From: a virus
Lineage: Duplodnaviria > Heunggongvirae > Uroviricota > Caudoviricetes
Reading direction: 5' to 3' (one strand)
DNA length: 64,000 nucleotides
Virus record (IMG/VR): IMGVR_UViG_3300020045_008999
Span: 256,001 to 320,000 of that record
This document shows positions 4,297 through 27,487 of the stretch, piece after piece. The first letter of the stretch is position 1; every line of letters begins with the position of its first letter. Under the pieces are notes generated by a model. That model was not told where the DNA came from. It worked only from the letters and a program-made list of their open reading frames with translations, and ran no database searches. Both the position numbers and the translations under genes were made by a program.

Positions 4297-4403
4297 CAAA
4301 TATAAGGAAAAAATTATCCATTTTCCTATTTTCCCCGTAGTATTTTCATTCATCAAAAAGTATATAAAAAATGCATTATTATACAAATAAATATGTATAT
4401 TTG
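4297..4403. promoter_or_regulatory. Divergent pair of Bacteroidota sigma-A-type -7 boxes (TAnnTTTG)
   Basis: TATATTTG on - strand 4304-4297 and + strand 4396-4403, each about 30 nt before a start codon. Confidence 0.7.
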
Positions 4404-4434
4404 CATCTAAACTTATAATTAACTACATATTTTT

Positions 4435-5004
4435 ATGGAAAAATTAACCAAAGGTGTCAAGCTTATTTTATTGATAAATATTGCTGCTTTTATTTTTAGT
4501 TCGATATTCTCACAGTTCACCGCTGATTATTTAGCGTTGCATATTTATAGTAGTCCAAAATTTTATTTATGGGAATTCATCACTTCACTTTTTATACATG
4601 GTGGTTTAATTCATTTATTATTTAATATGATGACTTTAGTATTCTTAGGCCCATATGTTGAAAAATATTATGGTACAACACGTTTTTATATAATTTATAT
4701 CATCATGGGTATTATAGCGGGCCTATTACAAATATCATTGATGTCAATTGACATTCCACTTGTTGGGGCATCCGGATCATTATTTGGCGTACTTACATTA
4801 TATGTAATACAAAATTACAATACTAAAATGTTTTTAATGTTCATACCGATCGGTATCAAAGCCAAATATATACTAATTGGTTTAATTGCGATTGAACTCT
4901 ATTCAGCATTCTTTGTTTCTGATAACGTTGGACATTTTGCACATTTAGGTGGGGCAGCATCTGGTTTATTAATACATAAATATTATCATGGTGTACGTAA
5001 TTAA
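4435..5004 (+). CDS. Rhomboid family intramembrane serine protease
   Basis: Multiple TM helices, HLLFNM, catalytic GASG and HLGG motifs. Confidence 0.95.
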   Translation: MEKLTKGVKLILLINIAAFIFSSIFSQFTADYLALHIYSSPKFYLWEFITSLFIHGGLIHLLFNMMTLVFLGPYVEKYYGTTRFYIIYIIMGIIAGLLQISLMSIDIPLVGASGSLFGVLTLYVIQNYNTKMFLMFIPIGIKAKYILIGLIAIELYSAFFVSDNVGHFAHLGGAASGLLIHKYYHGVRN

Positions 5005-6674: not shown

Positions 6675-7172
6675 TTGGGTTTTTTTGATTATTTTTGTTT
6701 AAATTATTTTTATATGGATAAAGTTAATTGTGTTTACCGACTTGGTTTATTTTTCAGTGAATATGTAGGAATGGATAATATTAAATTTCATTCACCAGAT
6801 TACCTATATGAAAAAATGGAAGTATTATTTAACATACCAGAGATGATATTAACACCATATGAACACGAATGGGGTTGTCATGAATTTATTATTAAATACG
6901 AAGGCACATGGGGGCCTATTACTGATACCTGTATTACTCGATTTATACTTTTTATATTCCATGCACGTGCACCTACTAGTGCAGAGAATTATATCAACAA
7001 CTTCGAAAAGTTTATATGTCCAATTCAAGATATAGTTTTAACTAATAACTATTTCCCAATGCATTTCAAAACTCTCAATTCTATTAATGAAATAATAGAA
7101 TTGTTAGAAAGATCTTCTGCCCACAAAAATATTATCCGATCATTATCAATAAAAAAACTTTTATCAAAATAA
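6675..7172 (+). CDS. Hypothetical protein with C-terminal RxxxIxxLL motif (probable start ATG 6714)
   Basis: ORF ends RSLSIKKLLSK. Confidence 0.7.
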   Translation: MGFFDYFCLNYFYMDKVNCVYRLGLFFSEYVGMDNIKFHSPDYLYEKMEVLFNIPEMILTPYEHEWGCHEFIIKYEGTWGPITDTCITRFILFIFHARAPTSAENYINNFEKFICPIQDIVLTNNYFPMHFKTLNSINEIIELLERSSAHKNIIRSLSIKKLLSK

Positions 7173-7466
7173 TTCGCTGGCTTGCTTAGTGGCTGATTAA
7201 AGACTAAAAATAACCAACACATACTAATCATTAAATTAAGAAAATACAAATGAATCAAGAAAATACAAATGAGCCATTAAGCAAGACTGCTGTTATAAGT
7301 CGGTTTTTATACGAAATGGCTGAAAAACATAATATTTCGGTAGATGGTATAGTAATAGGAATTGAAGAAATACATCCTAAAAGAGTTGATGGTAAAGTGA
7401 AATTACAGGTTATGAATTTAGATTTTCATAATTTAGAAGAGTTTTTGACTGAAAATGGCTTATGAA
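7173..7466 (-). mobile_element. Integron-cassette-like insertion 1 (attC-like hairpin 7171-7298 plus one ORF; slightly decayed)
   Basis: Arms CTTGCTTAGTGGCT (7181-7194) and AGCCATTAAGCAAG (7272-7285); GTTATAAG at 7292; near-complementary GGCTTATGAAC at 7457-7467. Confidence 0.65.
7250..7465 (+). CDS. Cassette-borne hypothetical protein
   Basis: ATG inside the hairpin loop; residues EPLSKTAVISR encoded by the right arm and GTT site. Confidence 0.75.
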   Translation: MNQENTNEPLSKTAVISRFLYEMAEKHNISVDGIVIGIEEIHPKRVDGKVKLQVMNLDFHNLEEFLTENGL

Positions 7467-7480
7467 CATACCAATTATCA

Positions 7481-7849
7481 ATGAGTAACGAAAATTCCAA
7501 ATACGAGGCACTTATGCCGATTTTAAAAGAAATTGATGCATTTGTTAATTTAATTGACAATTGGGATGGTTATGGTGCCATACCATTATTATCAGTGGTT
7601 CGTGATAATGCAATAATAGTGTTGAAATATTTCACCATACCACCCAGTGATTATTACCCAAATCCCCAGGGTACTATATCTATAAAATACGATTGTGATA
7701 TTCACCAACTGAATTTAGAAATTGGTACTACTCAATTCACATATTACACAACATTCAATGGTGTTCTACAAGAGAATGGAAGTTATCTGGATATTACCGA
7801 AATAAATTTAATGTGTTTAAAACTGCTAGTTCCTAATTTATTTTTATAG
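7481..7849 (+). CDS. Hypothetical protein (NWDGYGA motif)
   Basis: 122-aa ORF containing LIDNWDGYGAIP, a motif I recall from phage hypotheticals. Confidence 0.75.
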   Translation: MSNENSKYEALMPILKEIDAFVNLIDNWDGYGAIPLLSVVRDNAIIVLKYFTIPPSDYYPNPQGTISIKYDCDIHQLNLEIGTTQFTYYTTFNGVLQENGSYLDITEINLMCLKLLVPNLFL

Positions 7850-7860
7850 TTAGTAAAATA

Positions 7861-7893
7861 AAAAAAAGGCGTGAAATATTTCACGCCTTTTTT
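7861..7893. terminator. Bidirectional intrinsic terminator
   Basis: A7-GGCGTGAAATATTTCACGCC-T6 palindrome. Confidence 0.9.
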
Positions 7894-7914: not shown

Positions 7915-9309
7915 TTAAAATAAATTTTTAATTCTTTTGAACATGTTCACAAACCAATTATCGTTACTTGGTTTGATTTTACCTGGTTCGGAATTTTTAG
8001 GCAAAGTGATCATATCCAATATTTGTTTAGTAGTATCATCGCCATTACTTGGTTCGGGTGTAGAATCTAATCTAGATTTAGTGTTATATGAATTTGACCC
8101 CGCTTTCTGTTCAAATTCACTATCTTGTGAATATCCTAACTTAAGCATTTCAGAAACTAAAGCATGCCATTGCATTTCACCAGTGTAAATAAATTTACCA
8201 TCACTGAATATAGTTCCTAATGGTAGTGGTAATTTTGAATCATTTGCTTCTGATAACATATCACCATTAGCATCACCTATAGTAATAATATATTTACCAT
8301 TTTCAAATAATGAAACAAATGCATCACCATTAATACCCTTTATACCTGATACTTTATTTCTTATGGCAGCAATTACTTCCGGCTCAAACTGATACCCAGC
8401 GTCGGAATCTGTTATTGATTCAGAGACACTAAATAACATGCCATTTTTTTCAGGCGCAACCGCCATTTTATCAATTCGTAATTGTAAGTCGTCAATTTCC
8501 ACTTGTGCTTTTCTAATGCGTTCCGTAGCATTTTCTTGTTCTTGTTTCTTACGCTCTTGCATTTTCTTCAACTCAGCGGTAACTTGTTCATTTGTTTGCA
8601 ATATTGCTTGACCTAATTCATCACGGTGAATTACACCAGCATCAATTAATTCTTCTCTGGTTACTTTCAGATGATTTACAGAAGATTTTTGAGTTTGATC
8701 CACACCAGGGTTTGTTTCATCTGTAGTCACTTCATCTACATTTTCTGCCAATACCGGGGCTGTGCCCAGCGGCTTAGTATCTCTAACAATATCACCCAAT
8801 AAATCATTAATCGTTGCTAATGTCGCTGGTGATACTTCAACCGGATCAGTGTTGCCATATAATATATCTGATAATTTATCGATTGGTCTTTTTACGGACG
8901 AAAGTAAAATTAATGGTAAAAATTTATTTGTTATTTTACATTCAACTGTAGAAGTAAACTCAAAATCTGATGGATCGTACATCCCACCCAATTTACCAAT
9001 TTTAAGTTCAGCATCATAAAACTTTTCTAGAAGTCTTCCACGCATTGATTCATCGGTTTCACAAGTATCAACCTCTTCGAAATCAATAGTTTCATCATCA
9101 CGTATAGTAATTTTGAATATTAAGTGATCCAACATGCCTGACAGAAATCCACCCTTGATAAATGCTTCATCACTATTGATTTTTACATTTCCTCGAATTG
9201 TAGAAAATCCGATCACACCCGGCATCTTATACTTACCTAAAATTAGTGGTTTTGTTTCAACTGTGATGTTTTCATCTGTTATTTCTTCACTGTTATTATT
9301 TTCGGACAT
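7915..9309 (-). CDS. Hypothetical early protein with central coiled coil and amphipathic C-terminal helix
   Basis: 464 aa; ends NWFVNMFKRIKNLF; TATATTTG at 9349-9342. Confidence 0.8.
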   Translation of the reverse strand: MSENNNSEEITDENITVETKPLILGKYKMPGVIGFSTIRGNVKINSDEAFIKGGFLSGMLDHLIFKITIRDDETIDFEEVDTCETDESMRGRLLEKFYDAELKIGKLGGMYDPSDFEFTSTVECKITNKFLPLILLSSVKRPIDKLSDILYGNTDPVEVSPATLATINDLLGDIVRDTKPLGTAPVLAENVDEVTTDETNPGVDQTQKSSVNHLKVTREELIDAGVIHRDELGQAILQTNEQVTAELKKMQERKKQEQENATERIRKAQVEIDDLQLRIDKMAVAPEKNGMLFSVSESITDSDAGYQFEPEVIAAIRNKVSGIKGINGDAFVSLFENGKYIITIGDANGDMLSEANDSKLPLPLGTIFSDGKFIYTGEMQWHALVSEMLKLGYSQDSEFEQKAGSNSYNTKSRLDSTPEPSNGDDTTKQILDMITLPKNSEPGKIKPSNDNWFVNMFKRIKNLF

Positions 9310-26785: not shown

Positions 26786-26868
26786 TGATTAAACGTTTGT
26801 CGCCTGTGGTAGTTGGGAAAATAAAGCCCAAAACACCGAATAATTACTAATCATAAAAACACAAAACA

Positions 26869-27072
26869 ATGTCAAAGTTAAAGACCGAAACCCAATTACC
26901 ACAAGCAATTGTTAGCCGTTCGGTTGATGATTTTGATTATACGTGTTTCAAATGTAAAACTTATAAAACAAATAATTTAGATAATTTATTCGACCATCGC
27001 CAATATTGTAAAATAAAAACAAATAAAATAAAAAAAATATGGAATCAATTAATGCAAATGCTATCTGTTTAG
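26869..27072 (+). CDS. Cassette-borne small C2H/C zinc-finger-like protein
   Basis: ATG in hairpin loop; YTCFKC...H...C. Confidence 0.65.
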   Translation: MSKLKTETQLPQAIVSRSVDDFDYTCFKCKTYKTNNLDNLFDHRQYCKIKTNKIKKIWNQLMQMLSV

Positions 27073-27248
27073 ATTGTGGAACTGCAAAAGAAAATCCTGA
27101 AAATGGTTTTTGTATGAATGGTCACGATAACTGGCTTGAAGAAATGGATAAAATAGAAAGATTTTCAGAGGCTTCAATTAAATTTAATAAAACAACTTCT
27201 GAATTGATGTTTCATATTCAGCAGAATGTTTCTATAACTGAAGGCTAA
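27039..27248 (+). CDS. Cassette-borne small Zn-ribbon protein
   Basis: ICLDC...FCMNGH; stop TAA lies within GGCTAAC. Confidence 0.7.
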   Translation: MESINANAICLDCGTAKENPENGFCMNGHDNWLEEMDKIERFSEASIKFNKTTSELMFHIQQNVSITEG

Positions 27249-27487
27249 CAATATACTTTGGTAGAAGCTATGGTAATTATTGAACAACCAAATAGCGATG
27301 GGTATATGTTCTTATAAAAGAATGTAATTTACCAGTAGACATTGTAAAAGCGTTGGTTAAAAATTATTCGGTATTTCTGGCCCCGATGAGTCCGGATAGT
27401 TGGGATTTTAAAATTTATAATAGATTGGGTGTTATAGAAAATAAAAATTGGTCACCAATTAATGAATGTACAATAAAAACAAATTGA
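27249..27487 (+). pseudogene. Remainder of gene interrupted by cassette 2 (first three codons at 26785-26793), with a later frameshift near 27303-27308
   Basis: ATGATTAAA + CAATATACTTTG reads MIKQYTLVEAMVIIEQPNSDGY; removing 2 nt from TATATG continues VLIKECNLPVDIVKALV to TGA 27487. Confidence 0.6.

Follow-up and report, generated by a model that had tools for sequence, protein, structure and literature searches.

What is the segment at positions 7173-7466, which directly follows the stop codon of one gene and carries the start of another inside a hairpin loop, and how did it come to be there? The window (the whole stretch of 64,000 nucleotides that was analysed) covers positions 256,001-320,000 of a 596,785-bp virus record, which is 98% complete with a G+C content of 31.9%. 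The sequence-only reading had described an attC-like cassette with arms pairing at 13 of 14 positions and two apparent decay mutations, and all of its features were recovered where it had placed them. Our analysis indicates that this 294-base segment, called E1 below, is probably one mobile gene cassette of a hairpin-led type, present as a single copy and now degenerate. The coordinates of E1 and of E2, the other family member in the window, are given in Table 1.

Table 1. Features of E1 and E2 in the window, with the junction preceding E1. The arrow marks the insertion junction.
Feature	Position	Strand	Remark
Stop of upstream ORF 6675-7172	7170..7172	+	TAA, the left part of the TAA↓C junction at which family members insert
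E1 degenerate 5' junction and spacer	7173..7180	+	from alignment with the homologous L021 and L022 hairpins
E1 L-box stem, left arm	7181..7194	+	14 nt; pairs covary across 34 family members
E1 loop	7195..7271	+	77 nt, A-rich, mostly unpaired
Conserved motif in E1 loop	7222-7231	+	
E1 cargo start codon	7250-7252	+	ATG, inside the loop
E1 cargo ORF	7250..7465	+	71 codons, ORFan
E1 stem, right arm	7272..7285	+	within coding sequence (codons 8-12)
E1 R-box core	7292..7300	+	GTTATAAGT, 6 nt 3' of the stem; GTT at 7292-7294
E1 3' core	7457..7467	+	GGCTTATGAAC, reverse complement of the 7292-7300 core plus one extra G
E1 cargo stop	7463-7465	+	TGA; intact copies instead have TAA within nnnnnTAAC
E2 ('cassette 2')	26795..27249	+	with AAC, stem and core
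E2 stem	about 26805-26817 / 26891-26903	+	the core, GTTAGCC, has its mirror at 27243-27249

The two arms of E1 form 13 Watson-Crick pairs and one G-T pair over 14 nt, as first described, and start 8 bases past the upstream TAA; a repeat search extended the inverted repeat to 23 nt (83%). The position directly after a stop codon and the mirroring of the core at the gene end, with one extra G, were likewise confirmed (Table 1). Because the ATG of the ORF sits in the hairpin loop, the right arm is coding sequence, and both this arm and the GTTA core lie within the ORF, which corrects the earlier description. The total hairpin site measures 124 bp. Its folding z score was -2.66 on the sense strand and -0.21 on the antisense strand, and its stem ranked among the 10 strongest of the 6,744 long-range stems of the whole genome. 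No T run follows the stem. The first ~19 residues of the cargo protein are encoded by the hairpin module, and matches to other phages are confined to residues 1-29/33. The five small cargo ORFs tested, including that of E1, and the ORFs flanking E1 had no match in Pfam or PHROGs. Deletion of 7173-7466 in silico leaves TAA, a C, a 13-nt spacer and the ATG at 7481, the normal short intergenic spacer that had been predicted for an excision. Within the loop, a 16-nt direct repeat (7239-7273, spacing 19 nt) creates a second, out-of-frame ATG at 7269; the homologues of E1 have the same two loop ATGs, but 4 nt fewer before the first. A possible two-way terminator lies beyond E1 at 7862-7893, where a perfect 19-nt palindrome with A/T runs on its flanks separates two convergent ORFs, 7481-7849 (+) and 7915-9309 (-).

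A family of such hairpins exists in this genome and outside it. The genome-wide scan for long-range stems yielded seven members. Their loops measure 73-79 nt, and GTTA follows every stem. A covariance model, R1, was seeded with three homologous hairpins, E1 and those of L021 and L022 (88% mean column identity), and was run on the whole genome with speed filters, where it scored E1 at 138 bits, M2 at 63, N4 at 50, E2 at 43, N7 at 30 and the copy at 585,466 at 29. With the filters off on fetched loci, it added N5, N6 and copies near 205.0, 87.4 and 98.9 kb, as well as a weak match at 487 kb. In total, R1 located 11-12 copies at scattered positions in the genome and over 20 on contigs of other phages, with best E values reaching 1e-11 for the genome and 1e-34 for the other phages. 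The sequence-only reading had suggested such a scan as a check, and further members were thus obtained both genome-wide and in other phages. Its statement that chance is unlikely is borne out by the strand-biased fold, the rank of the stem and the covariance-model matches (E values from 2.5e-11 to 1e-3). The E1-type hairpin pattern was absent from 185,579 representative bacterial and archaeal genomes, and searches of the E1 region against cultured phages with megablast and blastn returned nothing real.

The remaining copies were aligned to R1 by Infernal. Over the 34 aligned copies, 93.9% of the cells were paired, compared to 63% after shuffling and 33-46% with slid partners, the pairing being somewhat inflated since the alignment was fitted to R1. 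The covariation result is nevertheless robust, because the slid controls are low and the arm sequences are wholly different. Seventeen of the 19 pairs had changed on both sides, and the AAC and GTT pairs were near-invariant, both being kept and paired in 27-29 of the 34 copies. E2 and N6 differ by one additional base in each arm, and these two additional bases pair together. The earlier remark that arm sequences differ completely while the structure is kept does not apply to all copies: E2 and N6 share arm cores, as do M2, N4 and N5. At window positions 26813-26830, the inner end of the E2 left arm (TTGGG) can pair with the nearby loop sequence CCCAA, a possible alternative local hairpin. Close to the end of the genome, three family hairpins occur within 850 nt at positions 585,466-586,720 (L015 2466-3720), namely the copy at 585,466, N7 at 585,830 and N6 at 586,184. 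At genome positions 4,398-4,480 (L012), an ORF with an E1-like leader, with neither left arm nor stem, gave a partial R1 match (E = 0.24) and probably represents a cassette with a more strongly eroded hairpin.

Intact copies follow one layout: TAAC↓G, a spacer, an arm, a loop of 73-79 nt holding the start codon, the second arm, GTTAnnnnn, the cargo and nnnnnTAAC. The upstream (T)AAC is followed by a G/C-rich spacer of 6-13 nt, the stem is 12-18 bp long, and the spacers are asymmetric, the 3' one having 1-7 nt as opposed to 6-13 nt for the 5' one. GTTA is present in all members, and the core that it opens extends over 9-17 nt. The 9-mer starting at GTTA is mirrored downstream, at 9/9 positions in M2, N4 and N6 and at 8/9 in E2 and N5. 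The mirrored 9-mer lies at +226 to +418 nt and ends in TAAC, of which the TAA is the cargo stop codon in the intact genome copies. When the ends were joined in silico, they completed a bipartite attC-like hairpin, and the simulated circular junctions were 2.4-7.9 kcal/mol more stable than the integrated form (DNA parameters), with an R box of 13-16 bp. A circularly permuted DNA unit predicts such a mirrored, cassette-specific core; a model at the RNA level alone does not. The number of genome members, the strong covariation, the mirrored ends and the circular junctions thus support the attC-like, structure-conserved family that had been postulated.

The wear of E1 becomes visible by comparison with its closest relatives. 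The E1 hairpin type is found on four other IMG/VR phage contigs, each time with a TAAC↓G junction and a 9/9 mirrored core, at +175, +277, +193 and +361. The cargoes of these four homologues are unrelated to one another and to that of E1. Protein similarity among E1-type cassettes ends after the N-terminal 16-20 residues (29-34 in the two best pairs of E1), and the similar part is the hairpin-encoded part. Compared to the L021 and L022 copies, E1 is missing 3 nt (CGT/CGG) at the crossover (alignment columns 4-6), so that its junction reads TAAT TCGC versus TAAC GTT TCGC in the homologues. Of the two decay mutations proposed earlier, the extra G in the 3' core stands, whereas the supposed change from AAC to AAT is better read as this 3-nt deletion. 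As a result of the extra G, the ORF ends in an in-frame TGA where TAA is usual. Among the E1-type copies, E1 alone is damaged at both ends, with neither the TAAC↓G junction nor an exact mirrored core. Because 3 nt were lost at the crossover and 1 nt was gained in the 3' core, E1 appears to be a fixed fossil, and the comparison gives good support to the view of an older, fixed insertion, a worn-out cassette copy. The stem of E1 is still perfect despite the damaged ends.

One hairpin type precedes five unrelated cargoes, and with the shared end modules this shows reassortment beyond what simple whole-cassette exchange explains. On L026 (2193-2290), half of an E1-type hairpin was observed: the left arm is replaced, but the 3' part of the loop, the right arm and a core with a 9/9 mirror remain. 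A short-loop hairpin comes next, in which the spacer behind AAC, GTCCTGC, and bases that come after GTTATAG are complementary. In L051 and L050 / L022, cassettes with different cargo have a common R-box type of ~17 nt (GTTATCAGGA.. pairing with ..TCCTGATAAC), from which it follows that R boxes also come in families, and conserved end modules of 40-80 nt are common to several of these cassettes.

Evidence for mobility comes from arrays and from a pair of cultured sibling phages. Contig L022 carries an array of four hairpins, with TAAC↓G junctions at 2299, 2692, 3071 and 3466. The sequences that flank the cassette differences between the Polaribacter phages P12002L and P12002S are 97.6-99.8% identical. 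At one TAAC↓G site of P12002L, P12002S has an insertion of 1.08 kb, which consists of three hairpin-led cassettes. In a second region, unrelated cassettes take the place of one another, with the left breakpoint exactly at CAAC↓GT and the right one exactly at AAC↓; the breakpoints of this block replacement share AAC (plus GT) and no flanking homology. R1 matched the P12002S hairpins at these boundaries with E values of 4.6e-7, 2e-4 and 8e-4. Since the replaced blocks start with a hairpin and end in AAC, the cassette phase is hairpin first and cargo second. The opposite phase, with the cargo first and the hairpin last, was rejected because the singletons and the P12002L/S blocks begin with the hairpin. 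Short-homology recombination could explain the first junction, as it lies inside ~14 nt common to neighbouring hairpins, and homologous exchange between modules thus also occurs, or is possible, in this pair. An empty allele of the E1 locus, which the sequence-only reading had proposed to look for, was not found: neither flanking protein has relatives in viral contigs, and the upstream ORF has none in metagenome contigs. A clean 420-bp indel between near-identical relatives of L022 (L036 3150-3569 against L035 3593-3599) proved to be the insertion of an ordinary small signal-peptide gene without a hairpin.

The hairpin could also be an RNA element, that is, a long-range 5'-UTR helix enclosing the start of a small gene, in a unit that spreads by ordinary recombination alone. 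Such a helix could repress translation or couple it to the termination of the upstream ORF, or could serve as a double-strand RNase site in read-through transcripts. Hairpin control of this kind is found in the e, soc and I-TevI genes of T4. This was our initial reading, because the three non-Watson-Crick positions in the 17-18 bp stem of M2 are all G-U on the sense strand and because the start codon lies in the loop. Other observations point the same way: in M2, as in E1, the sense strand folds better than the antisense strand; one stem position, non-Watson-Crick on the sense strand, is G-U in 24 of the 34 aligned copies; the left arm begins 3-19 nt past the upstream stop; and E1 and N7 retain perfect stems with damaged ends, N7 having a TAAG junction and no mirrored core. 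The RNA reading leaves unexplained the invariant AAC and GTT, the mirrored cassette-specific core and the block exchanges cut at AAC in the sibling phages. Moreover, the loop lacks an ATG in N7, N6 and the copy at 99 kb (the loop ORF of N6 has just 14 codons, yet its mirrored core is 9/9), the G-T wobbles fit a folded single-stranded DNA as well, and no Rfam family matches the hairpin elements. The mirrored-core test and the AAC breakpoints therefore demoted a purely RNA-level 5'-UTR stem, whether a T4 e/soc-like element or a site for RNase III, and we consider this explanation unlikely. In view of the short distance between the upstream stop and the left arm, and of the perfect stems of the damaged copies, the stem of the mobile cassette may have an added role at the RNA level.

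Somewhat less probable still is that the hairpin and start module is a portable expression signal, shuffled by homologous recombination of the phage between similar modules without a site-specific enzyme in the manner of the PeSL cassettes of T4-type phages. These promoter-early stem-loop modules can form mini-circles, which arise without a known recombinase (Arbiol et al. 2010, PMC2839356). In both systems, small ORFan genes each stand behind a conserved expression-signal or stem-loop module and are shuffled between related phages; judged by analogy, PeSL cassettes are the closest functional analogue without a recombinase. The ~88% identical hairpin modules before unrelated cargo, the end modules common to different cassettes, the P12002L/S junction within ~14 nt of common sequence and the complete array-bearing phages devoid of a recombinase would all agree with this explanation. 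It does not account for the block replacement whose breakpoints share no more than AAC (plus GT), nor for the singletons of the genome at TAAC sites without a neighbouring homologous module, and homologous exchange needs neither covarying arms nor a mirrored core. The anatomy also differs. PeSL modules have short G/C terminator hairpins beside a sigma-70-type early promoter and are exchanged through homology at variable points, and they have no AAC and GTT core, mirrored 3' end or in-loop start codon; in place of the short G/C terminator and homology exchange, we found here a 77-nt loop, no T run and AAC breakpoints.

If the cassettes move by site-specific recombination, which enzyme could be responsible? 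No IntI was found in the genome. Its sole tyrosine recombinase, in the whole 597 kb, lies at 108,239-108,661 (L017 1330-1959), consists of ~209 aa with a catalytic domain only, scores 37.6 bits to PF00589 and shows weak XerA/XerC/XerD-like matches; it matched neither the integron-integrase model nor any solved structure. It is located ~155 kb from E1 among LRR genes, with an LRR-repeat gene flanking it, the R1 search placed no hairpin beside it, and it has no relatives in viral contigs. The two complete 35-kb phages with arrays, P12002L and P12002S have no tyrosine recombinase. The simplest guess is that the recombinase is a host enzyme. In CTX-phage, integration by XerCD takes place on a folded single-stranded attP hairpin. 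There, too, a phage strand folds into a mimic of a recombinase site, a precedent for a host-supplied enzyme, but the event is the integration of a whole genome at dif and not of gene cassettes at TAAC, and we saw no dif-like site in our analysis.

A further alternative is a single-strand 'peel and paste' transposition by an HUH enzyme, similar to IS200/IS605. The target of IS200/IS605 elements and of derivatives with hairpins is a fixed tetranucleotide, on the 3' side of which they insert, and their cleavage sites are read through pairing with a guide next to the hairpin. The cassettes resemble them in that insertion is always 3' of TAAC, the 3' end could be recognised by pairing with the core beside the hairpin, and folding is strand-specific. 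Against this, the Y1 transposase (PF01797) was absent from five records (the E1 genome, its two complete 35-kb relatives and both Polaribacter phages), and each unit has one hairpin in place of subterminal hairpins at both ends, which makes this mechanism very improbable. A chance inverted repeat in AT-rich intergenic DNA, for which it could be said that a loose descriptor (stem, AAC, GTTA and near-mirror) matched the reversed genome 35 times against 23 times for the real one, is already refuted by the R1 E values, the covariation and the exact mirrored cores.

The preferred reading, that of a mobile cassette, invites a comparison with integrons. The size range of integron attC sites includes the 124 bp of E1. 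The imperfect hairpin resembles an attC site in its apparent AAC...GTT R box, its spacer, which is unpaired, and its putative L box; as in attC sites, the structure is kept and the sequence varies, the cassette ends at the core, and arrays of small accessory genes are formed. Measured against the attC core RYYYAAC ... GTTRRRY, the 5' site of E1 reads AAT after the 3-nt loss, and its 3' GTTATAA fits GTTRRRY at 5/7 positions. The putative L box has the stem, the asymmetric spacers and a conserved G-T wobble; no clear pair of extrahelical bases was identified. The cassettes are bounded by the core and their ends complete the site when circular, in E1 only with one indel. On the other hand, in an integron the cargo lies upstream of attC on the top (non-recombined) strand, whereas here it is downstream of the hairpin on the folding strand, with the wobbles on the coding strand and the crossover on the gene-sense 5' side. 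The loop of 73-79 nt is unpaired and holds a start codon and a leader peptide, and the R box of 9-17 bp is cassette-specific. Nor was a complete integron found, that is, an IntI with its characteristic insertion and an attI and Pc platform beside an array, and the copies are dispersed singletons in this genome. With no IntI, and with its cargo downstream of the hairpin on the strand that folds, the system is not a canonical integron.

Two published observations come close to it. Qi et al. 2023 (PMC9892861) described attC clusters without an integrase (CALINs) in 17 phages, P12002L included, and P12002L_attC1, the one site of this layout that they tested, is the site whose IntI1 junctions were not verified. 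In our analysis, P12002L_attC1 corresponds to the short-loop site before a methyltransferase gene, with the TAAC↓G ... GTTAGGC layout of the family. The attC-like kind of site was therefore already known; the long-loop class with a start codon, the cargo on the folding strand and the dispersed insertions in a huge phage are not described in Qi et al. 2023 or in the related literature consulted. Loot et al. (bioRxiv 10.1101/2022.09.11.507474) described IntI-driven cassette insertion at genomic attG sites in E. coli and Vibrio. The likeness is that single cassettes are found outside arrays at very short motifs (GWT there, TAAC here) and are expressed from local signals; the difference is that attG events are produced by IntI, whereas the family resides in a lytic-looking huge phage without a known integrase.

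We propose the following model. In an intact cassette, the crossover C after the target TAA is followed by a short G/C-rich spacer, a stem-closed loop, the GTTA core and the cargo, whose 3' end is the reverse complement of the GTTA core and usually supplies the TAA stop. When the ends meet in a circular cassette, the coding strand would fold as a bipartite hairpin composed of an R box (AAC and GTT plus the cassette-specific core) and an L box, a layout that matches the bottom strand of an integron attC site, which is the strand that recombines. The enzyme exchanging this folded strand with a TAAC target would be a structure-specific recombinase, most likely of the tyrosine type and possibly from the host, so that cassettes would be placed after stop codons. 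The hairpin loop would double as a translation start region encoding a leader of ~16-20 residues, and each cassette would in this way bring its own start. In E1, the loss of the crossover nucleotides on the 5' side and the addition of one base to the 3' core have left a fixed resident gene that may still use the hairpin loop as its 5' region. The data directly show the anatomy, the family and its covariation, the mirrored ends, the gain and loss of cassettes at AAC in the sibling phages and the decay of E1; from them we infer the folding of the single strand in vivo, the enzyme, the exact crossover and the use of the loop ATG. A wider interpretation, to which we give slightly less than even credence, is that the units are self-expressing cassettes, in which one folded site on the coding strand would be at once the recombination substrate, the translation start and the code for the N-terminal leader, and which would work in IntI-free lytic or huge phages.

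This hypothesis implies that an enzyme, perhaps a host Xer, runs an integron-like gene capture that scatters single genes after stop codons, in phages that carry no IntI and often no tyrosine recombinase at all. The family connects a 597-kb uncultured phage to cultured Polaribacter phages, and would extend the published picture of phage attC sites to a long-loop class with a start codon, to dispersed single insertions and to systems without an integron integrase. The small ORFan genes of large phages are mostly without a known route of arrival, and the cassette family offers a concrete and testable one. In the proposed route, accessory genes would arrive in cassettes that insert at TAAC where a gene ends and that carry a start codon of their own, and E1 would represent the end state, in which the cassette ends have eroded and an ordinary resident gene is left.
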